A stretch of DNA of 36,512 nucleotides from Endomicrobium sp. (lineage in GTDB: Bacteria > Elusimicrobiota > Endomicrobiia > Endomicrobiales > Endomicrobiaceae), in the NCBI GenBank assembly GCA_031273645.1, contig JAISRM010000144.1:1-36512 (forward strand). Direction: 5' to 3'. Shown piece by piece: positions 15,294-36,226 of the stretch (positions within the stretch are counted from its first letter, which is position 1; the number at the start of each line of letters is the position of its first letter). The notes below the pieces were generated by a model. That model had not been told where the DNA came from. It ran no database searches and saw only the letters and a list, made by a program, of their open reading frames with translations. A program made the position numbers and the translations under genes.

Positions 15294-15350
15294 TTAATAC
15301 TATAAGCCAAACGCTACGATAAGAAAATGATTTTGCGCGCAACAAGACGC

Positions 15351-15929: not shown

Positions 15930-15948
15930 ATATTGTTAAAATTTGATA

Positions 15949-16497: not shown

Positions 16498-16820
16498 AAG
16501 TAAAGACGCAAACAGCGCAGCCAAACAAAAAAAGCCGGAATTTAAGAATCTGCCGGAAAATTTGTAACGGCAAAAAGCAAACGCCCGATTACAAATTTCA
16601 AAAATTTGCTTTTAAAAAAGAATATGATTTAGACGCAAAATGTTTTGAAATTTAAAAAGTAATTTTTCCCGCGACCTTACGGCCGGGTCATTTGAATGAT
16701 ACGAGGTTTTGCCTTGCCCGCTTATGCGGGTTGACTTTATCTCACAACATTACGGTTTGTAAATTGCGCAGGAAGCATTAAAAATTTAAAGAAGTTTTAA
16801 TTTCAGCTTTTAGGACAAAC

Positions 16821-18089: not shown

Positions 18090-18090
18090 T

Positions 18091-18942: not shown

Positions 18943-18965
18943 CAATAAAATAAGGGAGGTCAGAA

Positions 18966-20045
18966 ATGGAGAGAAAAGTAAAAGCGGCTCAGTACGGCTG
19001 CGGGAAAATGTCGGTTTACACAATGCGTTACGTTTATGAAAAAGGCGGAGAAATTGTAAGCGCTTTTGACGTAAGACCCGAAGTTATCGGCAAAGACATC
19101 GGCGACATTATAGGAGGCGGCAAAAAAGGCGTAATAGTGCGCGACGCAAAGGAAGCCGAAACCGTCTTTTCAAAAGACAAACCCGACATTTGTATTATCA
19201 CCACAATGAGCCTTATGCAGGATTTAAAAACTGCTTTTTTAATCTGCGCAAAAACCGGAGTTAACGCCATATCGACCTGCGAAGAAGCTTTTTATCCTCA
19301 AAATTCTTCTCCCGCTCTTACAAAAGAAATCGACGACCTTGCAAAAAAGAACAACTGCACAATTTGCGGCTCCGGATATCAAGACGTTTTCTGGGGAAAC
19401 CTTATAACAGTTCTTTCGGGCGCAACCCAGACGATAACAAAAATCAAAGGCAAATCGAGCTACAATGTTGAAGATTACGGAATAGCTTTAGCAAAAGCGC
19501 ACGGCGCGGGACTTGATCTTGAAACCTTTGAAAAAGAAATAGCTTCAGCCGACAGAGTAAGCGATGAAGAAAGACAAAAAGTTATAGAATCCGGCAGCTA
19601 TCTTCCTTCATACATGTGGAACGTCAACGGCTGGCTTTGCGACAAGCTCGGCCTTACAATACTGCGCCAAACGCAAAAAACGGTTCCGCAGACTTATTCT
19701 AAAGATTTAAAAAGTTCTACGCTTGCCATGACGGTTCCGGCAGGCCATGCAACAGGAATGTCTGCCGTAGTTACTACCGAAACAAAAGAGAACATAACGA
19801 TAGAATCAGAATGCATAGGCAAAGTTTACGCTCCCGAAGAATTTGACTGCAACGACTGGACGCTTATAGGCGAACCTTCAACACAGGTAATTATCAACAG
19901 GCCGGCGACGGTAGAACTTACCTGCGCCACAGTAGTGGGAAGAATTCCCGACGTTATAAACGCGGCGGCAGGTTATGTCAGCACAGACAAAATGCCGGCG
20001 CCTCAATACAGAACTAAACCTTTAAACGAATATGTAAAAAAATAA
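18966..20045 (+). CDS. NAD(P)-binding DapB-N-like oxidoreductase, candidate amine dehydrogenase (2,4-diaminopentanoate dehydrogenase-like family)
   Basis: 359 aa. The N-terminal Rossmann-like motif VKAAQYGCGKMSVYTMRYVYEKGGEIVSAFDVRPEVIGKDIGDIIG resembles that family. GGGAGG is the RBS. The functional call is by motif memory only. Confidence 0.5.
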   Translation: MERKVKAAQYGCGKMSVYTMRYVYEKGGEIVSAFDVRPEVIGKDIGDIIGGGKKGVIVRDAKEAETVFSKDKPDICIITTMSLMQDLKTAFLICAKTGVNAISTCEEAFYPQNSSPALTKEIDDLAKKNNCTICGSGYQDVFWGNLITVLSGATQTITKIKGKSSYNVEDYGIALAKAHGAGLDLETFEKEIASADRVSDEERQKVIESGSYLPSYMWNVNGWLCDKLGLTILRQTQKTVPQTYSKDLKSSTLAMTVPAGHATGMSAVVTTETKENITIESECIGKVYAPEEFDCNDWTLIGEPSTQVIINRPATVELTCATVVGRIPDVINAAAGYVSTDKMPAPQYRTKPLNEYVKK

Positions 20046-20060
20046 AAGGGAGCAAAATCT

Positions 20061-21692
20061 ATGGAAAAAAATAACGACGTTTTAGGCGCAATAAACAGGG
20101 GTAACCCTACTCCGTCGGGATTATGCACCCTTTGCAGAGCGGACTGTCAAGGCAAATGCGAAACATGGCTGTCGTCAATAAAAGGCAGAAAAATGCTCTA
20201 TCCCAGAGACTTCGGCGTTGTAACGGCAGGCAGCGGCATTGAAACGCAGACCGGAATTTCTTACGACGCGCTTAGAATAAACGGATACTGTTACGGAGCG
20301 GCCGGACTTCCTAAAGGCTTATCCGATTCTCAAGACGACTGCGTTTTTCCAAACGTTAACACCGAAATTTCATTTGGAACAAAAATCAAAACAAAAGCGC
20401 GCATCCCGTTAATGACGGGCGCTTTGGGCTCCACGTTTATAGCGGCAAAATATTGGAACTCTTTTGCCATAGGCGCGGCTTTAGCGGGGTTTCCGATAGT
20501 TATAGGCGAAAACGTCGTCGGCGTTGACAAATCTTCCTCGCTTGAAAACGGCAAAATAAACAAAGCTCCGGAACTTGAAAGGCGTATCGACGCGTATTTA
20601 AAATATTACGACGGGTTTGGCGCAATAATAGTTCAGATGAACGTTGAAGACACAAGAAACGGCGTGGCGCAATACATAATAGACAAGTACGGCGACAAAG
20701 TGATTTTAGAGCTGAAATGGGGGCAAGGCGCAAAAAATATCGGCGGCGAAATTCAAGTTACAGATTTGGAATACGCGCTTTTTTTAAAAAACAGAGGATA
20801 CGTTGTTGACCCCGACCCGACGGCCGCCGAAGTTCAGGCGGCGTTTAAAGCGGGCGCCATAAAATCTTTTGCCCGCCACAGCAGAATAGGATACACCAAC
20901 TTAAACACAGCAGCGCAAGTGCAGGAAGATTTCAAAAAAAGTGTAGAATATCTTCGGAGCATAGGGTTTAAGCGCATATCGCTTAAGACCGGTTCTTACG
21001 GTATGGAAGCGCTGGCTATGTCGATAAAACTTGCTTCCGAAACGGAACTCGATTTGCTTACTATAGACGGTTCCGGCGGCGGCACGGGTATGAGCCCGTG
21101 GAACATGATGCAGTCGTGGGGAGTTCCTTCCATACTTCTTCATGCAAAAGCCGCGCAATATGCGGCCGCTCTTAGCGCGCGCGGAAAAAAAGTTGCAGAT
21201 ATAGCTTTTGCCGGAGGGTTTGCAAGAGAAGACCAAATTTTTAAAGCTTTAGCGCTTGGCGCGCCGTTCGTTAAATTAATATGTATGGGCCGAGCCGTTA
21301 TGATTCCCGGCTTTTTAGGTTCAAACATAGAAGGCGCGATAAAACCTGACGAAAAAGACGCGCTAAACGGCAACTGGAGCCAGCTGCCGCCGTCGTTAAA
21401 AGAGCACGGCTCATCTGCGGAAGAAATTTTTGCCGGCTATTACGACGTAGAAAAGAAAATAGGAAAATCTGAAATGAAAAACATTCCTTACGGCGCAATT
21501 GCAATTTGGACGCTTGCCGATAAATTAACCTGCGGCTTGCAGCAGCTTATGGCGGGAGCGCGCAGATTTTCAATGCCGGCAATTTCAAGAGACGATATTT
21601 TTTCAGTCAACAGAGAAACAGAAAAAGAAACAGGAATTAAATTCATAACAGACGCCCAAGACGAAAGCGCGTTAAACATATTAAATTCCTAA
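20061..21692 (+). CDS. FMN-binding glutamate-synthase-family protein (GltB domain-2-like) with an N-terminal Cys cluster
   Basis: 543 aa with IDGSGGGTGMSPW and FAGGFAREDQIFKALALGAPFV, typical of the glutamate synthase FMN/TIM domain. C-x2-C-x3-C-x3-C (CTLCRADCQGKC) lies at aa 22-33. GGGAG is the RBS, 15 nt after the upstream stop. Confidence 0.75.
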   Translation: MEKNNDVLGAINRGNPTPSGLCTLCRADCQGKCETWLSSIKGRKMLYPRDFGVVTAGSGIETQTGISYDALRINGYCYGAAGLPKGLSDSQDDCVFPNVNTEISFGTKIKTKARIPLMTGALGSTFIAAKYWNSFAIGAALAGFPIVIGENVVGVDKSSSLENGKINKAPELERRIDAYLKYYDGFGAIIVQMNVEDTRNGVAQYIIDKYGDKVILELKWGQGAKNIGGEIQVTDLEYALFLKNRGYVVDPDPTAAEVQAAFKAGAIKSFARHSRIGYTNLNTAAQVQEDFKKSVEYLRSIGFKRISLKTGSYGMEALAMSIKLASETELDLLTIDGSGGGTGMSPWNMMQSWGVPSILLHAKAAQYAAALSARGKKVADIAFAGGFAREDQIFKALALGAPFVKLICMGRAVMIPGFLGSNIEGAIKPDEKDALNGNWSQLPPSLKEHGSSAEEIFAGYYDVEKKIGKSEMKNIPYGAIAIWTLADKLTCGLQQLMAGARRFSMPAISRDDIFSVNRETEKETGIKFITDAQDESALNILNS

Positions 21693-22252: not shown

Positions 22253-22837
22253 ATGAACGAATTGAAATCTTTGCTTAAAAAGAAAAACGGTATTATTACA
22301 ACAGCGGAAGCAAACGCTATTGGTATATCTCGTGCGCAGCTGTGGCTGCTTGCTAAAAGCGGCGAGCTGGAGCATGTTGCTCACAGCATTTATATTTCTC
22401 CTGACATTTTACCTGACAAAATGTATATTTTACAGAAACAGCGGTCTAAATTAATCTATTCGCATGAAACAGCTTTGTTTCTTCATAATCTTACTGATAG
22501 AGACCCCATAAATTATAGTGTTACCGTTCCGATTGGATATAATACAAAACATCTTAAGCAAGACGGGGTAACGGTTTTTTCATTAAACTTAAGTTTATAT
22601 AAAAAAGATATCATAACAATGCAAACAGGTTTTGGGCATCCTGTGTTTCTGTATGGTCTTGAAAGAACAATTTGTGATTGTATAAGAAGCCGTAATCAGA
22701 TGGATATCGCAGTTGTTACTCAGGCTCTTAAAGAATATTCAAAACGAAAAGATAAAAATCTTAATTTACTTATGAAAACAGCTAAAGATTTTGGAATAAC
22801 AAAAGTTATGCGTAATTATATGGAGGTTTTGCTGTGA
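22253..22837 (+). CDS. abiEi: Type IV toxin-antitoxin system antitoxin/transcriptional regulator, AbiEi family
   Basis: 194 aa. The N-terminal wHTH GIITTAEANAIGISRAQLWLLAKSGELEHVAHSIY is typical of AbiEi_4. It has a 4-nt GTGA overlap with the downstream NTase gene. Confidence 0.8.
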   Translation: MNELKSLLKKKNGIITTAEANAIGISRAQLWLLAKSGELEHVAHSIYISPDILPDKMYILQKQRSKLIYSHETALFLHNLTDRDPINYSVTVPIGYNTKHLKQDGVTVFSLNLSLYKKDIITMQTGFGHPVFLYGLERTICDCIRSRNQMDIAVVTQALKEYSKRKDKNLNLLMKTAKDFGITKVMRNYMEVLL

Positions 22838-23661
22838 AAACATCTACGCAGCTAAAAGCCTTAATGAGAAATTTTGCCAAAGAAAGAAATATAAATCCGG
22901 AAATTGTTTTACGCAATTTTATGTTGGAGCGGTTGCTTGAAAGAATTTCAATTTCAAAATATAAAAATAAATTCATTCTTAAAGGCGGTATGCTGATATC
23001 GTCAATGGTTGGCATAGATACGCGCAGTACTATGGACTTGGACGCTGTTATTAAGAAAATGAAACTGACAGAAGATGATATAAAGTCAGTAATTAAAGAA
23101 ATTTTATCCGTTCCTATAGACGATAATGTCAGATTAACTTTTAAAAACATAGAAGAAATCCGAGAAGACGCAGACTATCCCGGCTACCGCGTTTCTGTTG
23201 AAGCAATTTTGGATAAGACAAAACAACTTATTAAAGTAGATGTCAGCGCAGGCGATTTTGTAACGCCGAAAGAAATTAAACATGATTTTAAACTTATGTT
23301 TGAAGATAGAAGTATATTGGTTATGGCATACAATGTGGAAACGGTTCTTGCGGAGAAATTTGAAACAACTATTGCCCGAGGTATAACTAACACAAGAATG
23401 AGAGATTTTTATGACATATATATTTTAACCAAAACGCATGCTTTTGATAAAAAGATTTTTAAGAGCGCCTTAGAAAAAACTGCTCAAAATCGTAATACAA
23501 TACAACAGATAGCAGAAACCGACAGCATAATAGAAACAATTGAAAAAAGTTCTGTCATGTCTGATTTATGGAAAAGATATCAGAAAAAATACGCATATGC
23601 AGCTGATATTTCTTGGACAACAATGGTGGATTCTGTAAGATTGTTAGCCGTCGAATTATAA
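22834..23661 (+). CDS. abiEii: Nucleotidyltransferase toxin, AbiEii/AbiGii family (DUF1814)
   Basis: 275 aa, GTG start. The NTase motif is FILKGGMLISSMVGIDTRSTMDLDAV, and the position downstream of abiEi is the canonical one. Confidence 0.8.
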   Translation: MKTSTQLKALMRNFAKERNINPEIVLRNFMLERLLERISISKYKNKFILKGGMLISSMVGIDTRSTMDLDAVIKKMKLTEDDIKSVIKEILSVPIDDNVRLTFKNIEEIREDADYPGYRVSVEAILDKTKQLIKVDVSAGDFVTPKEIKHDFKLMFEDRSILVMAYNVETVLAEKFETTIARGITNTRMRDFYDIYILTKTHAFDKKIFKSALEKTAQNRNTIQQIAETDSIIETIEKSSVMSDLWKRYQKKYAYAADISWTTMVDSVRLLAVEL

Positions 23662-23756: not shown

Positions 23757-24266
23757 AATTGTACCCCGCCGGTTTGTAATTGCCATGAAAATAGGAATCA
23801 AAGTTTGCTAACAGCCTTCGGCTGTTTTATAAAAACAGACGCAGTCCGGGTCTGTCATTCCCATGAAAATGGGAATCCACGTTTGCTAAAAAAATCTTTT
23901 TACAGCCTTCGGCTGTTTTATAAAAACAGACGCAGTCTGAAAAGAAATAATGTTAGAGGCTATATTAATATTAAACATGGATTCCCACCCGATAAAAACA
24001 CTCGAGTGCAGGCTGCTAAGGAAGAACAAATATTAAAATCACGGGAATGACAGGCACAAAAAAAACAGACGAAGTCTGTCCCGTTTTCGCGGGAATGACA
24101 GACCTTGAAAAACAGGCGAAGCCTGATTTTTAACTGCCATAATAAAAATGGAAGTTATCAATAGACAGAAAGCTTCAAGCACAAAAAAACAGGCGAAGCC
24201 TGTCTTGTTTTCGCGGGATGACGAAGCAGACGCGTCTTTTTTGATAAAACAGCAGCCGAAGGCTGA
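23757..24266. repeat. Intergenic mosaic repeat cluster R8
   Basis: Contains an inverted GGGGTACAATTT box, H hairpins, a 200-bp composite element, an F module (24125-24202) and CAGCCGAAGGCTG (24253-24265). Confidence 0.9.
23853..24052 (+). mobile_element. 200-bp composite MITE-like element, best-preserved copy
   Basis: TGTCATTCCCATGAAAATGGGAATCCA ... ATGGATTCCC-[C module]-CGGGAATGACA. The C module sits inside the right terminal hairpin. A 35-nt double-palindrome insert (GCCTTCGGCTGTTTTATAAAAACAGACGCAGTCTG, 23904-23938) sits inside the AT-rich core. Confidence 0.55.
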
Positions 24267-24320
24267 ATTAATGGGTTAAGAAAAAGAAGGATTGAAAATC
24301 CAAATCCAAGCGGGCGGGGG

Positions 24321-25334
24321 TTAATAAATTACGCCTTTTATTTTATTGTACTCTTCTTTTACGGTTTGAACGGCTTCTTTAGGCTGTCTGTTTTCGTCAT
24401 AAACTCCAAAACTGTTTTCCATGCCTGCGCCAGGAGTTTTTTCATAAGAACCTTTTGCCGGATCATCGATGAGCATAAACAAATAGCCGCTTTCCATAGA
24501 TCTAATCAAAGTTTCAAGCGCTGCTTCTTGCGCGCGCTGCGCATTTGAACCGTCGGCGTCAACCGACGCTCTGCCAAATTCCCCCAGCACCCACGGCATG
24601 TTTTTTGCAAAAGAATACCAATCGTCTTTGGCAAACCCGAAATTTGAACCTCTGTAAATGTTTGTCATTACAAGGTTAAGCCCGAGCTTTACATATTTTT
24701 TGTATTCTTTTTTTGAAGGAAGTTCTCCGTGAACAGTGGCTACAATTTTATTAGGAGCAAGTTTTTTGGCGGTTTTTACGGCGAGCTTAAGTTTTTTAAG
24801 CCATTCTTTTTTAGTAAACCATTGATCGTAATGATAATTGTATTCGTTTCCCAAAACTATCATCAAAATGGCAGGGTGATTGCCAAACATTTCAAGATAC
24901 TGCTCCATCAATCCTTCGGAACGCATATCTTCATAAGAAAAGCCTGCCGCAACTGTAATTCCTTCTTCAAGAAAAGCGTCTAAAATTTGAAGAGTTTGAG
25001 TTTTGTTAAGCGAACCGTCTTCAAAATAAGCGCCCAAAGGTCTGTAAGTTCTTATGGAATTTGCGCCTATATTTTTTATCAAAGATAAATCCGTTTTATA
25101 ATGCTGCCAATAAGACAGACCGGCAATGTCGGGAGCGTAACATACGCCTTTGATAATATAGCGCGCTTTTTTGCCTTTTTCGTCAGTAACTATTATTTTT
25201 CTATCGGCCACTTTAGCTTTAGCCACATAAATACCGTCGGGATTTTTCTTTGCCGCAACATGAGCGCATGAAAACAAAAAAGCGGACGCGCAAACAAAAA
25301 CTGCCGATAATAATATGTTTTTTATCATACTCAT
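24321..25334 (-). CDS. Clan GH-A (GH5-like TIM-barrel) glycoside hydrolase lipoprotein
   Basis: Lipoprotein signal MSMIKNILLSAVFVCASAFLFSC. Also IKGVCYAP and GANSIRTY, a candidate acid/base LGNEYNYH and a candidate nucleophile VLGEFG. The ORF extends to 25427, but that part runs toward repeat sequence, so ATG 25334 (or 25328) is preferred. Family-level call only. Confidence 0.6.
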   Translation of the reverse strand: MSMIKNILLSAVFVCASAFLFSCAHVAAKKNPDGIYVAKAKVADRKIIVTDEKGKKARYIIKGVCYAPDIAGLSYWQHYKTDLSLIKNIGANSIRTYRPLGAYFEDGSLNKTQTLQILDAFLEEGITVAAGFSYEDMRSEGLMEQYLEMFGNHPAILMIVLGNEYNYHYDQWFTKKEWLKKLKLAVKTAKKLAPNKIVATVHGELPSKKEYKKYVKLGLNLVMTNIYRGSNFGFAKDDWYSFAKNMPWVLGEFGRASVDADGSNAQRAQEAALETLIRSMESGYLFMLIDDPAKGSYEKTPGAGMENSFGVYDENRQPKEAVQTVKEEYNKIKGVIY

Positions 25335-25404: not shown

Positions 25405-25620
25405 ATCAACCCGCCCGATAAAGACACTCGAGCGCAGGCTGCTAAGGAATAAAAAATATTAAAAATGCGAAAATGACAAGCTGCGCTTGTCGTATCATCA
25501 TATTTCGCGGGAATGACAACAAAGATTTTGGAATGACAACAAAGATTCGTACTGTCGTTTCATAAAACAGACGAAGTCTGCATAAAACAGGCGAAGCCTG
25601 CATAAAACAGACTTCGCCTG
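25405..25620. repeat. Intergenic mosaic repeat cluster R9
   Basis: Contains a C module (25409-25475), the direct repeat GGAATGACAACAAAGATT x2 (25509-25548), and three 20-nt tandem units CATAAAACAG(A/G)C(GAA/TTC)G(T/C)CTG (25561-25620). Confidence 0.9.
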
Positions 25621-25639
25621 TAGTTTGAGTTTGGACTGA

Positions 25640-28600
25640 CTATGCGGCGGACAGTATGCTTCTTATTGCGCGGGTGTCTGCTGTGTCGGGCTTAAAATTG
25701 TCTTTATCAAATTCAACTTCTTTGCTGTACACCATTATAAGTTCTATTGCTTTTTCGGCTGTTTTTGTGCCAAGCGGGGCTTGTTTAAGCGCATCTTCTT
25801 TGTCTGGCGTTTCTGCGTCCGGCCGGGCTTGCATAAGCGCATCTGTAATTTTTTCAATATAATTTTTATCATTGGCATTATTTAAACCGTCTATAACAGA
25901 TTCATTGTCAGCGGGATACTTCGTCTCAAAATATTTTATCGCAAGCAGCTGCCCGAGCAGTTTTTCTATATTTTTATTTTTCAAGCCGGAAGCGCGGCCT
26001 TCGGCTTTTAACTCTGCTGCGATAAGAAGTTTTTCAAGCGCGCCTTTATAAAAGGCTGTCATTATTTTATGCTTTTCTTTTAGTATTTCCTGTTTTTTTG
26101 CTATTGTAAGTTTTTCTTCTGACAACAATAATGAAGTTTGCGCCTCTATTTTATCTATATATCTTGAAAAAATAGTGTTGTAATAAAGATCTAACGGCAG
26201 CTGCGAGTATTGGCTAATAACTGCATGAACCGTAATATCCGGAAACTCTTTTAAGATTTTAGCGACGTCGATATTTCTTGCTGTTTCTAAAGCGGTTTCG
26301 GGCGTCAACGGACGGTCAAAAATGTTTGCAAGCGCTTTTGAGGAAGTCCATATATCAAGAACGTACTTTGCAAAACCCGAACGATCTGCGCCAAGATGAT
26401 TTTCTATAGCGGATTCATATATGACCGTTACGATGTTTGAATTTCTTAAAGCATTGTCAAAATCGGCGGTTTTATCGTCTATTATTTCAACGTTTTGGGG
26501 GCTTACCGCAATGTCTAAAGCGTCGGTAATAGTTTTATTTTCAACGGAATACGTTCCGTCAAAAAGTTTCTGCAATGCGGGTTCCGCCGCGTCTTCAACC
26601 ATGATGCTTATTCCGGCGGCGCGCGCTGTTTGGATAACGGAATTTAATTTGCCGGCATTACTTAGATTTTCGGCAAGAGCGGCGGTAATTATAATGTTGC
26701 CGTTAGTTGCTTTTGTAAAAATTGTTTCAAAATATTTGTTAAAATCTTCAATTGTGTTTATTTTGTCTAAAAATACTATAAACCTCTTTGCATACGTCCA
26801 TGCCTCAGCCTGCTTTAGCGTACGCGTATGGTCAAACAGCGTTAAAGCATAATCGCCTTGCATTCTGTCAACAGCCATATAAATGCGCGGTATGCCGTTT
26901 TCGGCATATTCATAGCCGTTTTTAATTTTGTTCAACACCTGCGCAGCTTCTTTAGATAAATTTTCGTAAAAATACGTTTTTGCAGGGTCATAAGGCTGCT
27001 TTGTAAGAGTTTCAAACTCGCTCCGAAGTTGCGCATATGAAACTGTTGCATCAACTACCAGCGGATCTATAGATATTTGACCGGAAACCGGAAGATAAGA
27101 GCTTATTATTTCTTTGAATTTGCCCTCAGACAATAATTGCGCTAAATTAGCGGCGTCTATATTTTCTGCATAGATAACGACAGTTCCGTCAATATAACCG
27201 CTATATACGGATTTATCGCCGGTTTTTATTCCGGTATTTGAAAAAGAATCCATGTTTTCGGCAAACAAAGCGGCGTCAGCCATATATACGGGCAAAGACG
27301 CTCTGTTTTCCGATAATGTTAAAGCCTGAGAACCAAATATTTTTTTTGCGGCTTCAAATTTATCAGAAGAGACATTGATTATGTTTACTTCCGCAACTGA
27401 TTGAGTTGTTTTGCCTGTAATCTGTTTTAGCAAGGGAACTTTAACAAAAAGTTTGTTATATAAATTTTTAAGAAGCCTGCCTATATCGGCGAATGTGCCG
27501 TCTTTGGTCATCATATATATAAATAAAGCTGCAGCCGCTATCGCTAATGCGGGAGACACAAAATTAAAAAAACCTGCGGCCGCAAGAACGCCTATCATAG
27601 CAATAGGAGAACTTTGCAGCCTGCTGCCTTCGGAAGTTCTTTGGGAAAGGCGCGCCGCCGCGTCCGCCTGCGCGGCATCTTGCGTCAAGGGCGCTTGCGC
27701 TGAAGGCTCTTGAGTTGAAGACTCTTGAGTTGAAAACTCTTGGGTTGAAAGTATAAAGTCCGCAAGCTCCTGCGAATATTTTGATGCATTTATTATTTCT
27801 GTTTCAAGAAACTCGCGCGCATTTGTATCAGAAGTTCTTTTCCATGCGTCTTGCATAAGTTTAAAAATTATATTCAAATCTGTTGCCGGCGTTTTCATGT
27901 CAAAAATTTCCGGCGAAATATCATCTGTAAAACCATTATTATCTAAAAGCGCGTACTGAGAAGAGGCGTACCTCCGGCTTCCCATATTTAAACTCCACGC
28001 AAATATAAGATTATCTCTGTTTAGATTAATCGTTTTGTTTTTGAAAACAATATAAGATTTTGCCGCTCCCCGAGCTAAATGTTCGTCTAAAATATCGGCG
28101 TTTTGCGCCGCTATAGAAGCCCTGAAATCGTAGTGGCTGTCAGTTGTCGGTAATTGCGCGTTTTTAAAAGCCGCTAAAATATCTTCGGAAAGCTTGTAAG
28201 AAGGATTTGCAATTTTTAAATAGAGAAAAGCAAAAGCTCTGTATTTAATTTCTTTAAAATCTTCGTTTTTATTTTCAACTATATCGGCTAAGAAACTCTG
28301 ATTTTGCCTGTTTTTAATAATTTGCATATACTTAATATCGCTGTCATCAAAACGCTGTTGCAGTTCTTCCTGAGAAGCAGCGTCCATATTATCTGCAATT
28401 GCATTATCAACCATAGCAAGATAATCAAAAACTTCGCCGGCAGATTCTGCGTTTTGAAATATATTTGACTGTATCAAATCATCAAGCTTTAATAAAGCGT
28501 TTTGACGCATTGAAACGATTTTTGAAAATATGTTATCTTTGTTTAGCCTGCCAATTTCGCTTATATCGGTTCTCAACTTTCTTCTGAAATCGCTCATCGC

Positions 28601-31600
28601 AAGAATATCTACTCCGGGCGCCTGCGCATTATAAAATAAATATCTGTTGACGCCGTCGCTTATTACAGGCATTTCTTTTAACAGCTGCTTAACAAATTCA
28701 TTATCGGTTTCCACCGGCACTAAGAAATCTGTTTTGCTGTCCCAATTGTAAGAAATCTGTAAAATGTTAAAAGCGTCCTGCAAATTTTTGTCTTGCGTAA
28801 AGTCGCTGCTTTGTATGCTGTTTCTTTGCGCTTGTATGAACTTCTCTGCATCATATACGCTGTCAAAAAACAGCTCTGCAATTAAAGGCGTAACTTGAGC
28901 AGGCGCGGTTTGCGCGGGCGCTTGCGCGGGCGTTTGCGCAGGCGCAGAGGTTTTGCGTCCAAATAAATTATTAATAAACCGCTGTACTCTTTTTAAGACA
29001 GGAAGCTGTTGCGCTTCTTCATCTTCTTTTTTTCTGCCTGAAGCAAACAAAGCAAAAGGAAGAAGAAATGCCCCCGAAGTTTTAGCTTTACCGGCATTTA
29101 AAGAGCCTGCCGACAACACTGTAAAGGAATTAAAATTCGGTTTGCCGTTATTATTTGGATTTAATTTGCCGTTATAATGAAGAGTCGTCGCGCCAAAGTC
29201 TGCCGCAACTTCTTTAAGCTTTCCGGAACGAGTTACAACAGCTTCATAATAACCGTTCTTTTTCGTCATTTTAACTGTCCCTGCAACGGTCCCGGCAAGA
29301 TTGTCATTGCTATAATAAACCGTAGAGCCGTCTTCATAAATCATTCTTAAAAGAAAATTCGGCGAATTAGAATTGCTGTCAAAACCTATTCTTATAACAT
29401 CCTCTTTTTCAATATTTTTTCCGGCCATCCCATCAAACACGGCAACCGCCCAATTCTCTCCGCCATAATAATTTGGCGCGCCGTATTTAAACTTTACCGC
29501 CGCTTCGGCGCTTTGCGCTGCTTGAGCTTTCGGTTTTTCCGCATCTACAGACTGCGAAGGTTTTTGCGCCGGCGCAGCTTTGGCTATTTCTTGCGGGGTC
29601 GCAACATAAGTCTTTTTTAACTCAGATACTATGACAAAAGGCTGTACGTCTTTTGGAAAAAGTCCCCATGCAGTTGAAGCCAGACTTTTTAACTTTGGAA
29701 ATATGATCCAGCCGTGTCCGGTTTGAGCAAAATAATCAACATCGGAATAAGGCAAAAGTCCCTCAGATGATTTTGCGCTTTCAATGTATTGCTTCATGGA
29801 ATTTATTGCGGCAAGCAAAAGCGGGTCAGGCGTAACGGCTAACACTTCTTCCGCCGCTTTTATAAAACCGAAAGTCCATTCAAAACTGACTATCTTGTTC
29901 TGCCTTGAATTTATAAAATCAACTCCTATATATTCGCCTTTTTCATTTTTTACTCCGGCTCCTTCCAGCGTGCGTTTTAAAAGATCTTTGCTGAAATTGC
30001 CGTCATTCATATTTTTATTTAATTTTTCTACTCCCAGCGCCAATATCATCCACGTTTGACAGTCTGTGGCAAATTTTAAATTCTTTGAACCTTTGTCATC
30101 TATTCCCGTTACAAAATAACCAATCTCTTTGTTGTACATTCCCATTAAAGCTTTTTCAAGCTTGTCGGCTGCGGCGGCATAAGTTTTTCTGTCGGTTGCA
30201 TTTGCGTATTGCGCTAAAGCTCTTAAAGCCGATAAAGCCGATATATTATTTTCAACGGATACGACTTTATTGTAATCTATGCCCAGATACGCATAATGCC
30301 CTACTTTATCTTCGGGAGCCATTACTATTAAACCTGAAGGCTGCTGCAAAGCGATCATGGCTTTGCCTAAATCGTTCATAATTTCATAAGCTTTATTGCC
30401 GATGTCCGTGCCTTTGTAGGCATTGTATATGTCGGCCATAGTCATTGCGATCCATGCGTTTTCTCCGGTTATAGGCTGAGCCTGATCTTTAAGGAATCTT
30501 CCATAAATGTCCACGATTTTCCAAAAATATCCGTGTCCGGCCGCAATATTTGCTCCGTTATAATTAAAATCTTTATTGCTTCTTACATCTCCTGCCTGAT
30601 GTAGAGCGGTAACCATTTTGCCGACCAGATCTTTGTTTTCTTCAGGGTATAAAAGCAGCGCTTTTACATAAACGCTCCAATCATAAAGTATAACGCCCCT
30701 TTCGGCTATAAGTTTTTGCGCGTCATTGTTTATTTCGTCGGTTGAACCGGCATAACTTCCGGTCAGCGCAGCGCCCTTAGAAAATACCGGATAAACGCCG
30801 CGTATCTGATTGTTGCTTATCGGAATTTCCACAGTAACTTGAGGCGTTGGAAGCGGATTAGGGTTGACCGGAGCGCCGGCAAGACTGTGCGCCAGCATAA
30901 GCATGAAAAATAATCCTACAATAAATTTCGCCATTTTGACCAGCGCCGACGTTGATTTGCTCGGCTGTTCAGACGGCTTTGTCTCGTCTTTTTCACGCTG
31001 CTTTTGAAAAGCCGCTTTTTGAAAAAATTCAGGCATTCTGCCTATAAGTTCGTAGGGAATTTCGTCAACAGATTTATCTTTGTAATTTTGTTCTATTTCG
31101 GGGATAACGCCGTAAACGCCTTTTTTTGATAAATCGTAATTTGAGTAGGCGGCGTAAATGAAAATTTTCTTAAACGTTTCATAAGTTTGGGCATTATTAA
31201 TATCGGTCAAAGAATATAAATCAAAAGAGTTTGAAAGAACATTTTGCGCTAAAGCGATTATGTCTGTAAACCCAAGCGTGAAACTTTCGAGATTTTGCAT
31301 GTCGGAACTTTCCGGCGGCTTTTGAACGTTTTGAAGCGTGTAAGAGCCGTCGGCATTTTTTGAAAACGTAATTTCTGCGCCGGATATTTTAATATTATAA
31401 TAAGTATCCGATACGTTGATTACAAGATTATTTTCCCCGTAAACATCTTTTAAAAAGCCGGTAAGCATATCAAGAGCGCCGGCGGTAAAAACGCTTTGCT
31501 GCGTTAAAGCGCCTATCAATTCTTGCGGCTTCACATTTTCAAAAATTGACTTTAAATCGCTTACGGCTTTCTTCGCCTGCTCAGAACTTAGAGCCTTTAG

Positions 31601-33229
31601 CTCATATAAGCGCGCAGCCGCGTTAAAAATAGTGAACGCTCTTTCAAGCGCGGGCAAGTCAAGCGACGGCGCTAAAGTCTGGCTGAAAAACATGCTCTGC
31701 TGGGCTATTATCTGCCTGTAATTTGCTTCGGCGGCTTCAAGCCCTTCGGTAATTCTGGGCGTTATTACGACATTGCTTATTTTTTTTGCGTCTAAAAGTT
31801 CCGATATTCCGTGAGTATGGTATCCTCCGGTCACGACTATTATTATTTCTGTTGAATTATTTAAAACGGCAAGAGGCGGCTCGTTTTCAATTTTATCGCC
31901 GGATACAAGCTGCGTGTTTTTATTGATATTTTGCAAAAATATTTCGTTTCTTTGATTGTTAACGCTGTAATAATCGTTTAAAACTGGAAAATTTTCGCTT
32001 AAAGATTTTAAATGATCGGAAGATGAATATTTTGCATATATGTCTCTAAATCTTTGAAAAGTTTCCATAAAGTAGCGTTCGTCTTTTGCCGTAAGAGAAT
32101 TGGTAAGATAGCCTTGAAAAAAGTAAAAGAAATTGTTTAAGAAAGATATTTCGTTTTCCTGTATGGAAGAAGAAAGAGCCGATATTATTGTTTCGCGCAG
32201 TTTCTGTTCCTGAAAAAATAAAGCCACGGGGTTGATCTGCGAACTTAAATTTTTTACGGCGACAAAACCGCGAAGATTCGGTTTTGAATTTCCTTCAATT
32301 CCGTAATACTCTATATATTTGCATAAAGCGTCAATATCTTTAAAATTGCCGGTGCCTTCCGACATTTTGTTAAATTGGGAATAACTGATTTTGTTTTTCA
32401 GTTCCGAAACGTATTGGCTAAGTTCGGCGTTTACTTTGTTTACTTTAAGTTTTTCGGCCATTTCGTTTATCGCAATGATTTTTTTAAGTTCTCCGTACTC
32501 GCTTTCGTCTATCGGCAAAATGTTGCCGTAAACTTCGGGAGCGGCGTTTATCTGCTTTACGTATTTAAACATGCTTGCATAAAATTTGTGGTCGCTTATT
32601 TTTTTCGCATTATATCTTGCCGCAAGATTTAAGAAATTTTTGCAGGACGCGCCCAAATATTTGTTTGAAAGCCAGCCGATTTCATTTTTAACTTTAGCTA
32701 TGACGACTTGGTACTGGCTTTCATTTGAATATATTTTTCCTAAACGCTCGACATTTTCTTTGTGAACATTTGCGTCTTCAAGCCCGAAAACGTTGTTCTT
32801 ATTTTTTTCAAACGCATAATATTCCACGCCGGTAAGCCTTCCGTCTAAAATAAGCTGTTCGGCTATTTTGTTTTTAATATCGCCGCCGGAAGAAATTGAC
32901 GAAAGCCACGAAAGATCCACTTTTCCGCTTGCGCCTTCCACATAAATCGCTTTTACATTATATTTGTCGTCAAGTTTTTCTATTATCTGAGCTATATTTT
33001 TTTGAACCTGAGGATGACTGTGCAAATCCTGAATATTTACGATGACCTGTTTTGTGCCGTAACTTTTGGCGTCTATTATGTGGCCTAAATCAGACGAAAA
33101 AATTTGGTCGTTTAAAACGTTGACGTCGTTTGCCGCAATCTGCGCCGCGCCGGCCGCTGCAGACTGGGCTGTAACGCTCCATAAAAAACAAAATGCGGTA
33201 AAACTTGCAAGCGTTTTCTTAATACTCAT
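25640..33229 (-). CDS. Giant 2529-aa modular envelope protein, family unknown
   Basis: Uninterrupted ORF. GGAGG (33239-33235), 5 nt, then ATG 33229 (Met13 of the supplied translation). The Sec signal is MSIKKTLASFTAFCFLWSVTAQSAAA. There are three internal hydrophobic segments and three low-complexity linkers. I recognise no full-length family. Confidence 0.85.
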   Translation of the reverse strand: MSIKKTLASFTAFCFLWSVTAQSAAAGAAQIAANDVNVLNDQIFSSDLGHIIDAKSYGTKQVIVNIQDLHSHPQVQKNIAQIIEKLDDKYNVKAIYVEGASGKVDLSWLSSISSGGDIKNKIAEQLILDGRLTGVEYYAFEKNKNNVFGLEDANVHKENVERLGKIYSNESQYQVVIAKVKNEIGWLSNKYLGASCKNFLNLAARYNAKKISDHKFYASMFKYVKQINAAPEVYGNILPIDESEYGELKKIIAINEMAEKLKVNKVNAELSQYVSELKNKISYSQFNKMSEGTGNFKDIDALCKYIEYYGIEGNSKPNLRGFVAVKNLSSQINPVALFFQEQKLRETIISALSSSIQENEISFLNNFFYFFQGYLTNSLTAKDERYFMETFQRFRDIYAKYSSSDHLKSLSENFPVLNDYYSVNNQRNEIFLQNINKNTQLVSGDKIENEPPLAVLNNSTEIIIVVTGGYHTHGISELLDAKKISNVVITPRITEGLEAAEANYRQIIAQQSMFFSQTLAPSLDLPALERAFTIFNAAARLYELKALSSEQAKKAVSDLKSIFENVKPQELIGALTQQSVFTAGALDMLTGFLKDVYGENNLVINVSDTYYNIKISGAEITFSKNADGSYTLQNVQKPPESSDMQNLESFTLGFTDIIALAQNVLSNSFDLYSLTDINNAQTYETFKKIFIYAAYSNYDLSKKGVYGVIPEIEQNYKDKSVDEIPYELIGRMPEFFQKAAFQKQREKDETKPSEQPSKSTSALVKMAKFIVGLFFMLMLAHSLAGAPVNPNPLPTPQVTVEIPISNNQIRGVYPVFSKGAALTGSYAGSTDEINNDAQKLIAERGVILYDWSVYVKALLLYPEENKDLVGKMVTALHQAGDVRSNKDFNYNGANIAAGHGYFWKIVDIYGRFLKDQAQPITGENAWIAMTMADIYNAYKGTDIGNKAYEIMNDLGKAMIALQQPSGLIVMAPEDKVGHYAYLGIDYNKVVSVENNISALSALRALAQYANATDRKTYAAAADKLEKALMGMYNKEIGYFVTGIDDKGSKNLKFATDCQTWMILALGVEKLNKNMNDGNFSKDLLKRTLEGAGVKNEKGEYIGVDFINSRQNKIVSFEWTFGFIKAAEEVLAVTPDPLLLAAINSMKQYIESAKSSEGLLPYSDVDYFAQTGHGWIIFPKLKSLASTAWGLFPKDVQPFVIVSELKKTYVATPQEIAKAAPAQKPSQSVDAEKPKAQAAQSAEAAVKFKYGAPNYYGGENWAVAVFDGMAGKNIEKEDVIRIGFDSNSNSPNFLLRMIYEDGSTVYYSNDNLAGTVAGTVKMTKKNGYYEAVVTRSGKLKEVAADFGATTLHYNGKLNPNNNGKPNFNSFTVLSAGSLNAGKAKTSGAFLLPFALFASGRKKEDEEAQQLPVLKRVQRFINNLFGRKTSAPAQTPAQAPAQTAPAQVTPLIAELFFDSVYDAEKFIQAQRNSIQSSDFTQDKNLQDAFNILQISYNWDSKTDFLVPVETDNEFVKQLLKEMPVISDGVNRYLFYNAQAPGVDILAMSDFRRKLRTDISEIGRLNKDNIFSKIVSMRQNALLKLDDLIQSNIFQNAESAGEVFDYLAMVDNAIADNMDAASQEELQQRFDDSDIKYMQIIKNRQNQSFLADIVENKNEDFKEIKYRAFAFLYLKIANPSYKLSEDILAAFKNAQLPTTDSHYDFRASIAAQNADILDEHLARGAAKSYIVFKNKTINLNRDNLIFAWSLNMGSRRYASSQYALLDNNGFTDDISPEIFDMKTPATDLNIIFKLMQDAWKRTSDTNAREFLETEIINASKYSQELADFILSTQEFSTQESSTQEPSAQAPLTQDAAQADAAARLSQRTSEGSRLQSSPIAMIGVLAAAGFFNFVSPALAIAAAALFIYMMTKDGTFADIGRLLKNLYNKLFVKVPLLKQITGKTTQSVAEVNIINVSSDKFEAAKKIFGSQALTLSENRASLPVYMADAALFAENMDSFSNTGIKTGDKSVYSGYIDGTVVIYAENIDAANLAQLLSEGKFKEIISSYLPVSGQISIDPLVVDATVSYAQLRSEFETLTKQPYDPAKTYFYENLSKEAAQVLNKIKNGYEYAENGIPRIYMAVDRMQGDYALTLFDHTRTLKQAEAWTYAKRFIVFLDKINTIEDFNKYFETIFTKATNGNIIITAALAENLSNAGKLNSVIQTARAAGISIMVEDAAEPALQKLFDGTYSVENKTITDALDIAVSPQNVEIIDDKTADFDNALRNSNIVTVIYESAIENHLGADRSGFAKYVLDIWTSSKALANIFDRPLTPETALETARNIDVAKILKEFPDITVHAVISQYSQLPLDLYYNTIFSRYIDKIEAQTSLLLSEEKLTIAKKQEILKEKHKIMTAFYKGALEKLLIAAELKAEGRASGLKNKNIEKLLGQLLAIKYFETKYPADNESVIDGLNNANDKNYIEKITDALMQARPDAETPDKEDALKQAPLGTKTAEKAIELIMVYSKEVEFDKDNFKPDTADTRAIRSILSAA
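27707..27751 (-). repeat. In-frame 15-bp x3 tandem repeat (encodes STQEF/STQES/STQEP linker) in the giant gene
   Basis: CTCTTGAGTTGAAGA / CTCTTGAGTTGAAAA / CTCTTGGGTTGAAAG, read directly. Confidence 0.9.
28909..28944 (-). repeat. In-frame 12-bp x3 tandem repeat (encodes the PAQ(A/T) linker) in the giant gene
   Basis: TTTGCGCGGGCG / CTTGCGCGGGCG / TTTGCGCAGGCG, read directly. Confidence 0.9.
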
Positions 33230-33239
33230 TTGTTCCTCC

Positions 33240-33279
33240 AAAAATAAAAAACCGGCTTTTAACAAGCAAAGCCGGTTTT
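33240..33279 (-). terminator. Intrinsic terminator/attenuator hairpin spanning the stop codon of the 169-aa gene, immediately upstream of the giant-gene RBS
   Basis: A perfect 12-bp stem (33268-33279 pairs with 33248-33259) with an 8-nt loop. On the minus strand it is followed by TTTATTTT. The stop codon at 33259-33261 lies at the stem/loop edge, and the GGAGG of the giant gene starts at 33239. Confidence 0.6.
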
Positions 33280-33768
33280 CATTATTATTAATTTTTTTAT
33301 TTTTACAGATGATTCTGCATTAAACAAACGCAAAAGCCCTATGTACAAAAGCATTGCCGACACAATAAACGTTAAAAATAATAAAAATAAAAGATGATGC
33401 TGCGCCGACGAGCCGCTAAACAAATAATTGCCGGCGGGCAAAAGCGTAAAAAGTTTTTTATAAGAACTTGAATTATATACTGCCGGATTATAAGAAAAAA
33501 ATTGTTTTTCGTTTTTCAACAAAGAATCGCCCCCGCCGGCAGAAAAACTTAAAACCGTAAAAGAGTTTTTAAAGCCGGCTCTTATCTGCGCGGCTATTTG
33601 GCAATAATCTTTAACAAACATTATTTTGTTATCTATAACTTTATGCAAACCTGCGGAATTTTGCCCGCAAAAAGTTTCCTCAAAAAAAGCAGAAGCTCCG
33701 GCCTCGCTTAAAGCAAACCCGGGCATAAGCAAAAACAAAACCAATAAAGAAACTATAATTTTTTTCAT
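33259..33768 (-). CDS. 169-aa hypothetical protein with N-terminal signal peptide and C-terminal membrane anchor
   Basis: MKKIIVSLLVLFLLMPGFALSEA signal, a soluble ~110-aa part with two Cys, and a C-terminal hydrophobic stretch HHLLFLLFLTFIVSAMLLYIGLL. No recognisable family and no clear SD sequence. Confidence 0.65.
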   Translation of the reverse strand: MKKIIVSLLVLFLLMPGFALSEAGASAFFEETFCGQNSAGLHKVIDNKIMFVKDYCQIAAQIRAGFKNSFTVLSFSAGGGDSLLKNEKQFFSYNPAVYNSSSYKKLFTLLPAGNYLFSGSSAQHHLLFLLFLTFIVSAMLLYIGLLRLFNAESSVKIKKLIIMKTGFAC

Positions 33769-33776
33769 TGTATCTA

Positions 33777-33805
33777 AGAATAGCCTTATTTAAAATTTTT
33801 GTCAA
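33777..33805 (-). promoter_or_regulatory. Candidate sigma70-type promoter in the clpA / 169-aa gene spacer
   Basis: The minus strand reads TTGACA (33805-33800), a 17-nt spacer, then TATTCT (33782-33777). This leaves only ~8 nt before ATG 33768, so the transcript would be nearly leaderless. Confidence 0.35.
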
Positions 33806-33820
33806 CAGGCTGCGCCTGTT

Positions 33821-36079
33821 TTATGCGTCTGGTTTTGTCATAACGCAGACGAAGCCTGCTTTAACCGTAATTTTATATTCCCCGTCAACATAATCCGCTT
33901 TTGCGCTGCCGCCTTTGGAAAGGTCGCCAAAAAGTATTTCATCGGCAAAAGGGGATTTAATTTTTTCTTCAATAACGCGGCCGATGTTTCTTGCGCCAAA
34001 TTTTGCGCTGTAGCCGTCTTGGGCAAGTTTGTTTATACAATTGTCGCTGGCTTCAAACGTAATATTTTTTTGAGCAAGCAAATCTTTAAAGAGATTGAGT
34101 TCTTTGCAAACAATAGATTTAATCATTTCTTTTGAAAGATGTTTAAAATGAATAACAGCGTCAAGCCTGTTGCGAAATTCGGGATTAAAAATTTTTTCCA
34201 CCGCGCTGTTTACTGCAGAAAAGTCTATAGATTTATCATTAAAACCGATAAGCTTTTTTCCTATTTCATGAGCGCCGGCATTGCTTGTCATAATTAAAAC
34301 CGCATTTCTAAAGTCAGCTCTGCGGCCGTTATTGTCAGTTAAAGTTGCATAATCCATTATTTGAAGCAAAATATTGTAAATGTCGCTGTGAGCTTTTTCA
34401 ATTTCATCTAAAAGCACAACGCAATGAGGGTGTTTTCGCAGCGCGTCGGTAAGCAAGCCGCCTTCTTCATAGCCGACATATCCCGGAGGGGAACCTATAA
34501 GACGCGATATCGTGTGTTTTTCCTGATATTCGCTCATATCAAAACGGTGTAAAGTAATTCCTAAAATGTCGGCAAGCCCGCGGGCAAGCTCTGTTTTGCC
34601 TACTCCGGTCGGACCTACAAACATGAAATTTGCAATTGGTTTTTCTAAAGCGCGCAGCCCCGCCCGGGATTGTTTTATTGCTTTTACGACGGCGCTTACG
34701 GCATCATCCTGACCAAAAATGCGTTCTAACAATTTGCTTTCCAAAGATTTCAGTTTATCTTTTTCGCTTTCTATTACAGAACGCTGCGGTATTTTTGCCG
34801 ATTTTGCAATAATGCTTTCTATCAGTTTAGCGTCAATTTTTTCTGTTTTCATATTTTTTGCAGCTTTTATATGCGTAAAAGCGCCTGCTTCGTCAATTAT
34901 ATCAATAGCTTTGTCGGGAAGTCTGCGTTCGGTAATATATTGCGCAGAAAGCTTTACGGCAGTTTCAATTGCTTCGTCTGTATAGCTGACATGATGAAAT
35001 TCTTCATACTTAGATTTAAGACCCTGCAAAATAGTAATGGAATCGTCGATACTTGGTTCATCTATGTCAATTTTTTGAAAACGTCTTGAAAAAGCCCGCT
35101 CTTTATCAAAAAATTTAGCGTATTCTTCGTAAGTGGTGGAACCTATGCAGCGTATTTTGCCTGAGGCAAGGGCAGGTTTTAAAAGGTTTGCCGCATCAAG
35201 GGAATTTCCCGACACAGAGCCAAAACCTACAAGAGTGTGAATTTCGTCAATAAAGAGAATTGCGTTTTCCCTATTGACAATTTCATCTATAACCCGTTTT
35301 AAGCGCTCTTCAAAATCACCGCGGTATTTTGTTCCGGCAAGTAAAGCCGCTAAATCAAGAGAAAAAATAGAAAAATCGGCAAGCATAGGAGCAATATCAT
35401 TGTTGACAATTTTTTGAGCAAGGCCTTCGATGATTACGGTTTTTCCCACTCCGGAATCGCCTACAAGAACGGGATTATTTTTAAGGCGGCGGCAAAGAAC
35501 CTGTATTATGCGTTCAAGTTCGGTTTCGCGCCCGATTAAAGGTTCTAATTTGTTTTCGCCTGCAAGTTTTGTGAGGTTTATCGCATAACGTTCAAGCGCA
35601 TTTTTCTTTTTGCCCGCTTTTTCATGTGGATCTGAAATATTTTCTTCTTCATCTTCAATGTCATTATGAGAAAGCGCCGTCAGCAAATCAATTCGTTTAA
35701 TTCCGGCTTTACGCATAGAATAAGAACTGTAATATTTGGTTTCATCATATAAAGCTATTAAAATATCTGCAATGTCAACCGTATCTTTTTGAGCGTTCAG
35801 GCTGTTTTGCTGCGCGCGGTTTAGAATGTTTTGAAAACCTATGCTGCTTACGGGTTCTGTTTTTGCGCTAATAACGTCAACTTTTTGTTTAAAGTATTCT
35901 TCAATAAGAGTTCTAATCAATTTTATGTCTGCGCCGCAGTATGAAAATATTTCCTGAACCTCGCTGAAAGCGAGCGCCGCATATAAAATATGTTCGGGCG
36001 TAATATATTCGTGACGGTATTTGCGCGCCTCATTACAGGCGGCTTCTATAACAGATTGCGAAAGCTGGGAAATGTCCAT
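33821..36079 (-). CDS. clpA: ATP-dependent Clp protease ATP-binding subunit ClpA
   Basis: 752 aa. It has a Clp N-domain ([11 protein letters not shown]) and two AAA+ modules (GDSGVGKT / ILFIDEIH and [11 protein letters not shown] / [11 protein letters not shown]) with no ClpB-type middle domain. AGAGG is the RBS. Confidence 0.92.
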
Positions 36080-36121
36080 ATTTATGCCTCTTTAAACGGC
36101 AAAGCCGTTGTTAATTGTTAT

Positions 36122-36226
36122 TACGCAGACTTCGTCTGTTTTATGGGACGGTCGTATCTGTTTTGTCATCCCGCGCTTTTTAATTTTTCTTCCTAAGCAG
36201 CTTGCGCTCGAATACTCGCCGTCATT
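36122..36226. repeat. Intergenic repeat cluster R10 (degenerate)
   Basis: CAGACTTCGTCTGTTTTATGGG (36126-36147) followed by an eroded H/C module, TTTTGTCATCCCGCGCTTTTTAATTTTTCTTCCTAAGCAGCTTGCGCTCGA. Confidence 0.8.

Follow-up and report, generated by a model that had tools for sequence, protein, structure and literature searches.

The window analyzed here, a 36,512-nucleotide stretch of Endomicrobium sp. DNA (assembly GCA_031273645.1, contig JAISRM010000144.1, positions 1 to 36,512), harbors on its minus strand a giant gene that encodes a protein of 2,529 residues. This gene is a member of an unnamed and very large family whose centre lies in the Elusimicrobiota, and its product is read here, with a probability of about 0.5, as a polytopic inner-membrane carrier from this undescribed family. 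The carrier would consist of a fixed chassis, namely an N-terminal helix, an N-module with enzyme-like invariant residues, a transmembrane (TM) hairpin, and a C-module, with interchangeable cargo placed between the two ends. In the window giant, a glycan-processing module would be held on the inner membrane's outer face and tied to the cytoplasmic chassis.

A protein database search retrieved 116 other giant homologs of 1,400-4,400 residues, nearly all of them from metagenome-assembled genomes (MAGs) of Endomicrobium, Endomicrobia, or Elusimicrobia. The closest homolog, P0002, was 51% identical to the window giant and collinear with it over residues 1-1454 and 1947-2529. Residues 1 to ~520 were common to all 117 giants, and the closer ones also shared residues ~1947-2529 (local BLAST). 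When 1.84 billion cluster representatives (50% identity clusters) were searched with a profile of the N-module, 8,722 protein clusters were matched at E<=1e-3, of which 3,807 also passed E<=1e-30, mostly from Elusimicrobiota/Endomicrobiales and with several copies per genome; the window giant itself scored 692 bits against this profile. Among the best 150 of the 8,722 matches, the N-module was N-terminal in nearly all, and the proteins bearing it reached ~7,800 residues. These homologs contradict the original prediction made from this DNA, in which the giant was described as an orphan. With one exact N-module peptide pattern, 265 loci were confirmed among the GTDB species representatives, and the comparisons of GTDB loci below rest on the 80 that were kept. 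These were nearly all from Elusimicrobiota of termite gut, rumen, peat, and groundwater, again with several loci per genome. One of the 80 loci, L069 (JBDRNO010000048.1), came from a MAG labelled Bacteroidota, for which mis-binning or horizontal transfer is possible; in the reverse direction, the closest stand-alone homologs of domain b, one of the cargo domains of the window giant, were Bacteroidales proteins.

The family plan comprises the N-terminal helix, the N-module, variable cargo, the TM hairpin, and a C-module of ~590 residues that ends in ...ILSAA-COOH (Table 1); the middle of the giants varies and both ends are conserved. The window giant possesses the N-module, the C-module with its tail, a small partner gene upstream, and a leader hairpin. 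None of these five elements was found described in the giant-protein and Elusimicrobia literature searched, and the Elusimicrobia genomics papers searched did not mention such giants, which agrees with the earlier view of an undescribed system. The invariant residues of the N-module were Q67, D68, H70, E98, G99, E136, R427, G468, G469, H471, and P491 (motif set QDxH / EG / E / R / GGxH / TP). Its AlphaFold2 (AF2) model showed an alpha/beta core into which a large helical part is inserted, with a predicted local distance difference test score (pLDDT) of ~90 in the core. The C-module (model pTM, predicted TM-score, 0.75) was detected by jackhmmer in 38 of the 117 giants, always at the extreme C-terminus and always directly after a TM cluster. 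A word-indexed homolog search with residues 1447-2529 (25643-28891) came back empty; such an empty result does not mean absence for this type of sequence, because 37 C-module homologs exist among the giants and were recovered locally by jackhmmer.

No relative of either chassis module could be detected in Pfam or the PDB. Only chance-level matches (AAA_14, TrbL, and DUF1722 among them) were obtained when Pfam and NCBIfam were searched with the full giant and with 27 N-module, 21 C-module, and 8 domain-b sequences, and no PDB sequence matched the giant, the N-module, the C-module, or domain b in phmmer and profile searches. Foldseek comparison of the AF2 models of the N-module and the C-module with the PDB, a check proposed by the original prediction, returned 0 matches at E<=1e-3. 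The earlier reader's failure to place the protein in any known family therefore extends to every curated resource searched (Pfam, NCBIfam, PDB sequences, and Foldseek), and the full-length match to an RTX adhesin or a large clostridial-type toxin that it had named as a refuting finding did not appear. In particular, Pfam and NCBIfam gave no RTX, Ig-like, or GT/CPD match. The weak Foldseek ranks, including EreC, glycogen synthase, and AAA+ proteins, all lay above E 1e-3 and are not regarded as evidence. The motif pattern Q/E-x-x-H...E...R...G-x-H and the alpha/beta core with its inserted helical lobe are similar to those of the erythromycin esterase/Tiki/TraB/ChaN superfamily; membership is not claimed. 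This identity was rejected for the N-module, as there was no significant Pfam or PDB-profile match, the Foldseek values were E 0.4-3 with TM-scores of 0.15-0.25 (EreC at E 0.4-0.8, 3b55 among the weak ranks), and hhalign against Escherichia coli YbaP gave a probability of 0.07%.

Cargo domains in the relatives were taken from precomputed and newly mapped Pfam annotation. P0026 contained a full PGM, PGK, and PGI set (PGI 593 bits, PGK 428 bits), P0033 contained ADK and PFK, P0050 contained PGI and PGM, P0040 contained PRK and HAD, and P0009 contained PGM (residues 806-1226) followed by domain b. P0068 and many other giants carried CBM48 with an alpha-amylase, and further giants carried PPDK, GH65, UDPGP, SIS, and other domains, as well as glycogen enzymes. 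The common theme of the cargo is sugar, sugar-phosphate, and glycogen metabolism. The glycolytic domains occur in the relatives and not in the window giant, whose middle consists of domains b, c, and d. Domain b matched nothing in Pfam, NCBIfam, or the PDB sequences, its Bacteroidales counterparts included. In Bacteroidales, it was found after a lipoprotein signal, after five BACON domains, or after a BT3328-like N-domain; it therefore occupies the position of the catalytic domain in surface glycan-degrading enzymes, and domain b is probably glycan-active. A hyaluronate-lyase identity for b, suggested by BT3328 via P0118, was discarded since the match falls in the N-terminal accessory domain of P0118 and not in b. 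As in the Bacteroidales surface glycan-degrading lipoproteins (with BACON or DUF4988/BT3328-type N-domains and the catalytic domain at the C-terminus, where the b counterpart is found), b is kept behind a signal peptide; unlike in them, b of the window giant is embedded in a multi-pass protein of 2,529 residues. Domain c follows exported cargo, and a c-like segment also occurs after the glycoside hydrolase (GH)-like cargo of the L006 giant. Domain d is similar in part to two stretches of P0017 and to nothing else, and it is missing from P0002.

The near-uniqueness of domain d bears on the integrity of the gene. An assembly chimera or a decaying pseudogene, especially at the insertion that contains d (residues 1447-1946), would account for a segment that has almost no homologs and is missing in the closest relative. 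Against this, the 7.6-kb frame is unbroken, homology is collinear on either side of d, typical linkers bound the domain, the GC content is even along the gene, and two partial copies of a d-like segment exist in P0017; this explanation is scarcely credible. A frameshift or chimera is argued against for residues 1-1454 and 1947-2529 because of the collinear homology to P0002 there. The uninterrupted minus-strand frame spans 25640..33265, with 2541 codons when counted from a TTG, and the likely start is ATG 33229, so that the numbering used here is that of the original 2541-residue translation minus 12. The single intact frame, its GGAGG-N5-ATG start, and the division into modules by linkers and hydrophobic segments were all borne out. 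The low-complexity Ala/Pro/Gln/Ser/Thr linkers were located at residues 1216-1244, 1428-1446, and 1828-1859, and the hydrophobic segments at the three sites listed in Table 1, that at 1386-1398 being weak.

The polytopic reading, with most of the mass in the cytoplasm, is suggested by the internal signal peptide that precedes b. Such a signal lay directly before b in six of the seven b-carrying giants. Four of these six had a lipobox cysteine (P0002, ITSAC; P0003, FSSEC; P0007, MFSAC; P0009, INASC), and the signal peptides of P0006 and the window giant (AHSLA↓GAP) were of the non-lipobox type. In the seventh, P0004, b followed another b-like segment, with a hydrophobic segment ~110 residues upstream. 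The internal signals are predicted to be oriented N-in/C-out because their N-flanks contain 5-7 Lys and Arg versus 0-2 in the C-flanks. Six relatives have mapped cargo, and in each of them the N-module ran on to the cytoplasmic-type enzymes with no hydrophobic segment between; only a hairpin of two-helix length intervened before later enzymes. The PGM of P0009 lies between the N-module and the internal signal, also with no hydrophobic segment between, and the GH-like cargo of L006 stands behind an internal lipoprotein signal (IFSMTAC↓G). The simplest consistent reading places the N-module, domain d, and the C-module in the cytoplasm and b and c outside the inner membrane. The N-module would thus reside in the cytoplasm, the internal signal peptide at residues 759-789 would export b and c, and the weak TM segment at residues 1386-1398 with its RKK would return the chain to the cytoplasm, where domain d would be located and where the C-module would be anchored by the TM hairpin at residues 1873-1909. 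In paralogs of the same genome, the same chassis would carry sugar-phosphate enzymes such as PGM, PGI, PGK, and PFK, and the family may serve to organise, at the membrane, the breakdown of carbohydrates and the metabolism of sugar phosphates.

The internal signals can also be read as processing sites. The giant would then be a polyprotein precursor that is cut into separate enzymes by signal peptidase I or II at the internal signals (AHSLA↓GAP here, the lipobox Cys in relatives), with the N-module as a hydrolase that might cut the linkers; the chassis would be a delivery or processing device rather than a permanent scaffold. Canonical cleavage motifs are present in the internal signal peptides, the N-module invariants Q-D-x-H, E, E, R, and GGxH look catalytic, and long low-complexity linkers separate the modules. 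Cleavage into several products has also been raised for the giants of Omnitrophota (West-Roberts et al., 2023; 10.1101/2023.11.21.568195). On the other hand, the N-module matches no protease family, the linker sequences are not conserved, and there is no clear reason for making housekeeping enzymes as membrane-threaded precursors. A precursor of this kind is considered unlikely.

Export of the whole protein through an N-terminal Sec signal would give a surface megaprotein (an adhesin, a contact-dependent effector, or an extracellular multi-enzyme complex) whose cargo works extracellularly or within a host or prey cell. The original prediction saw a candidate for a secreted or contact-dependent system of this kind; this is not supported, given the conserved ends, the cytoplasmic-type cargo, and the prediction of an export signal ahead of b and c only. 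The N-terminus is signal-like, and both b and the GH-like neighbor are of the exported lipoprotein type. Giants of Omnitrophota have been read as surface proteins with a signal peptide (SP) and TM segments. Many Endomicrobia live in or on protists (PMC11257099), a setting that would offer sugar phosphates and ATP. Yet the internal signal peptide before b would point the wrong way, the cargo of the relatives needs ATP and sugar phosphates, both ends are conserved instead of a trafficking N-terminus being joined to a variable toxin C-terminus, several paralogs exist per genome, and domain scans of the window and the homolog loci detected no secretion-system, toxin, or immunity domain in the giant or its neighbors. 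Full export is therefore regarded as improbable. A polymorphic toxin or contact-dependent inhibition system was rejected on the same grounds, as the C-terminus is the conserved part; a variable middle between conserved ends is the reverse of polymorphic-toxin logic.

Several points count against the inner-membrane carrier itself. The N-terminal helix is Sec-like, with KK, a hydrophobic stretch, and an Ala-rich end, and its best 15-residue Kyte-Doolittle value has a family median of 2.19. If it is a Sec signal, the N-module would be periplasmic, which contradicts the cytoplasmic model. The Sec signal peptide proposed earlier for the window giant is doubtful: the KK and the Ala-rich end speak for it, and the weak hydrophobic region (1.61) and the clash with the orientation of residues 759-789 speak against it. 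The re-entry segment is short and weakly hydrophobic, and TM parity by hydropathy counting across the family was uninformative, giving no clean parity. Neither chassis model found a Foldseek neighbor at E<=1e-3, and the putative role in metabolism at the membrane is drawn from domain content. Finally, the degron proposed below relies on an ssrA/ClpX resemblance, and the adjacency of clpA is not conserved.

Of the 117 giants, ~95 end in [ILM]L[STAK]AA-COOH, including ones that are ~20% identical and ones without a detectable C-module. The ssrA-type degrons end in ...LAA-COOH and are read by ClpXP, ClpAP, or FtsH, or by the periplasmic Tsp. The family tail resembles them in its conserved, non-polar Ala-Ala carboxy-terminus and differs in being genetically encoded and in having Ser, Thr, or Lys ahead of Ala-Ala instead of Leu-Ala. 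By this analogy, it may act as a degron that mediates turnover of the carrier by a cytoplasmic AAA+ protease. A different use of the tail would be self-assembly, in which the N-module binds or processes the ...ILSAA-COOH tail of another molecule and paralogs with different cargo are chained head-to-tail as an array bound to the membrane. N-module and tail occur together in the same ~95 of 117 giants, the most divergent ones without a detectable C-module included, and multiple paralogs with different cargo exist per genome. The proposal is purely inferential, however, and the tail would fit a degron or a recognition signal of the PDZ/Tsp type just as well. An array of this type appears very improbable.

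The inner-membrane carrier appears to be encoded together with a second membrane protein. The small partner gene of 169 residues had no Pfam or NCBIfam match (hydropathy values 2.74 and 2.81), and its C-terminal TM motif, MLLYIGLLRLF, recurs in the family as ...LLYIGLLRLF... in homologs of ~160-175 residues. Such homologs were located immediately upstream of the giant gene and on the same strand in L001, L002, L003, and L005, and upstream in 37 of the 80 GTDB loci by jackhmmer, with ~13 more recognised by eye; the co-occurrence of the two genes, which the original prediction had proposed to examine, is thus supported. A terminator-like hairpin stands between the last codons of the partner and the Shine-Dalgarno sequence of the giant. 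Because the leader stems cannot be aligned, folding of each locus and a pattern search with controls were employed. The same arrangement was found in ~52 of 75 related loci versus 6 of 216 control windows, with unrelated stem sequences. The 5' arm of the hairpin encodes the conserved C-terminal K-T-x-F-A of the partner (33247-33280; L001, L003, L005-L008, and ~50 other loci), so that the RNA hairpin shares its sequence with the protein tail and the two may be under mutual constraint. As the leader T-run leaves no room for a promoter, the giant gene is predicted to be reached by read-through, which suggests attenuation or antitermination. The giant would therefore be co-transcribed with a small bitopic membrane protein, with read-through of the conserved leader terminator being required.

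The clpA stop and the partner gene are 52 nt apart, and the best same-strand promoter-like site falls in this gap. The clpA gene (33821-36079, minus strand; TIGR02639, 1035 bits) is located two genes upstream of the giant, no clpS was found upstream of it in the window, and no clpA was present in any of the 80 upstream regions of the GTDB loci. Its adjacency is for this reason treated as incidental, and clpA was rejected as a functional partner, being unconserved and cut off from the operon by the promoter-like site and a repeat hairpin. In L003, tig-clpP-clpX-lon (15929-20452) directly follow the giant gene P0026. AAA+ protease genes thus adjoin two of the six neighborhoods (the window and five homolog loci) of a family with an ssrA-like tail, which may be a coincidence.

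Among known systems, the Omnitrophota giants (Archaeovorin-type and others) are close in kind. Giants of more than 30,000 residues in that phylum carry PGM/PMM, PGI, PPDK, and glycogen/starch enzymes, and their topology is disputed (10.1101/2023.11.21.568195; 10.64898/2026.06.07.730766). Both groups are very long and share multiple TM segments, N-terminal regions that lack annotation, and enzymes of sugar metabolism embedded in the chain; the window giant has the TM segments, and the glycolytic domains occur only in its relatives. Unlike the Archaeovorins, the window giant has 2,529 residues, belongs to a different phylum, and contains none of their SecA_DEAD, HEAT, GT, methyltransferase, NUDIX, or C39/S8 peptidase domains (Pfam). 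It resembles the Archaeovorins in being a giant multi-pass enzyme carrier, and it departs from them in size and in lacking SecA_DEAD and GT/HEAT domains. Cellulosome scaffolds and polymorphic toxins likewise combine conserved parts with swappable modules. In contrast to both, the window giant has no cohesin, dockerin, toxin, or immunity domain in domain scans, its variable part is internal, and much of the family cargo is of the cytoplasmic housekeeping type.

Table 1. Features of the giant gene and its surroundings in the window.
Feature	Position	Residues	Strand	Basis or remark
Giant ORF (open reading frame), 2,529 residues + stop	25640..33229		minus	ORF scan, homologs
Shine-Dalgarno GGAGG	33235..33239		minus	5 nt ahead of ATG 33229
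N-terminal hydrophobic helix, KKxxSxxTAxCF	33131..33229	1-33	minus	Family-conserved
N-module core	31670..33112	40-520	minus	Common to 117/117; AF2
N-module extension	30980..31669	521-750	minus	jackhmmer 35/117; lower pLDDT
Internal signal peptide/TM, ...KMAKFIVGLFFMLMLAHSLA↓GAP	30863..30955	759-789	minus	Predicted N-in/C-out by flank charges
Domain b, exported-type cargo	29585..30832	800-1215	minus	44-48% identity to Bacteroidales lipoproteins; 7 giants
Domain c	29075..29497	1245-1385	minus	5 giants; beta-rich by eye; follows exported cargo
Weak hydrophobic segment, GAFLLPFALFASG then RKK	29036..29074	1386-1398	minus	Putative re-entry TM
Domain d	27749..28891	1447-1827	minus	Helical by eye; nearly unique to window giant
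TM hairpin ahead of C-module	27503..27613	1873-1909	minus	Hydropathy; TM cluster there family-wide
C-module	25679..27442	1930-2517	minus	jackhmmer 38/117; AF2
C-terminal tail, ...RSILSAA-COOH	25643..25678	2518-2529	minus	Conserved in ~95/117
Small partner gene, 169 residues	33259..33768		minus	Strong signal peptide, ~100-residue domain, C-terminal TM, short basic tail
Leader terminator-like hairpin, 13-bp stem then T-run	33247..33280		minus	dG -18.9
Promoter-like site, TTGACA-17-TATTCT, 10/12	33777..33805		minus	Consensus match only
GH-like lipoprotein gene, 337 residues from ATG 25334, lipobox LFSC	24321..25334		minus	Pfam GH2_C
Three tandem REP-like (repetitive extragenic palindromic), terminator-like hairpins (CAGRCTTCGYCTGTTTTATG)	25563..25630		minus	Just past giant stop

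The giant is co-oriented with clpA, the 169-residue gene, and the downstream lipoprotein gene, as had been proposed from the sequence. The GH identity of this lipoprotein, assigned earlier to clan GH-A, is a marginal match, since the Glyco_hydro_2_C TIM barrel scored 22.2 bits against a cutoff of 21 and covered residues 174-234 only. A homolog with 54% identity adjoins the P0004 operon, and the L006 giant contains a fused copy with 27% identity behind its internal lipoprotein signal. The GH-like gene is linked to the giant family because it is fused as cargo in that giant of another genome; the association of the two genes suspected earlier is thereby upheld, and the GH-like lipoprotein is taken as a free-standing version of a cargo module. 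REP-like hairpins follow both the clpA stop and the giant stop. Palindromic terminator-like repeats (CAGRCTTCGYCTGTTTTATG) were found in the gaps around the block of clpA, the small gene, the giant, and the GH-like gene at 23800-24270, 25563-25630, 33792-33860, and 36112-36150, that is, downstream of the giant and at both ends of the block, where repeat clusters had been noted before. A 72-nt direct repeat, 85% identical, stands on both sides of the GH-like gene (23984-24055 and 25410-25481), with an inverted copy at ~36181-36211, which hints that the gene belongs to a cassette that is mobile or was duplicated.

The rest of the window contained housekeeping genes and an AbiEi/AbiEii toxin-antitoxin pair (22253-23661), ~2 kb from the 3' end of the giant. 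An AbiEii gene (L004 3904-4743) was also located immediately upstream of the giant P0068 on a rumen Elusimicrobia contig. In Ca. Endomicrobium macrotermitis, the gene directly downstream of the giant P0004 encodes a PIF1-family helicase (L005 12922-14247), and the PIF1 gene of the window (16821-18089, ~7.5 kb off the giant) may be a remnant of a shared gene order. Directly downstream of the giant P0007, L002 encodes a Glyco_trans_2_3 protein of 1,743 residues (12398-17629). The window also encodes a protein of 1,348 residues (3607-7653) with ~7 or more CarboxypepD_reg/prealbumin-like beta-sandwich repeats; this protein has no relationship to the giant family.

Huge proteins that lack a COG assignment are reportedly enriched in Elusimicrobiota (PMC11573180). 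The window giant is a compact, tractable member of these huge proteins, and its comparison with relatives defines the fixed parts of the family, the partner gene, the regulatory hairpin, and a putative topology rule. With confident AF2 models that have no PDB neighbor, the chassis modules are attractive for structure determination, and the family could be studied in the cultured Elusimicrobium minutum and Endomicrobium proavitum if members are present there. If core enzymes such as PGI, PGK, and PGM were present in some genomes solely as cargo, metabolic reconstructions of these genomes would need to be re-read, and the giants would provide an example of membrane-organised glycolysis in bacteria. 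A broader and more doubtful proposal is that the giants and their partners form an unrecognised, phylum-wide two-gene system, controlled by a leader terminator, in which the chassis installs interchangeable enzymes at the cytoplasmic membrane. If this were true, complete enzymes of core glycolysis as well as glycan hydrolases that are exported would be part of the installed cargo, and the central carbohydrate metabolism of these small-celled bacteria would be physically organised on giant membrane carriers.

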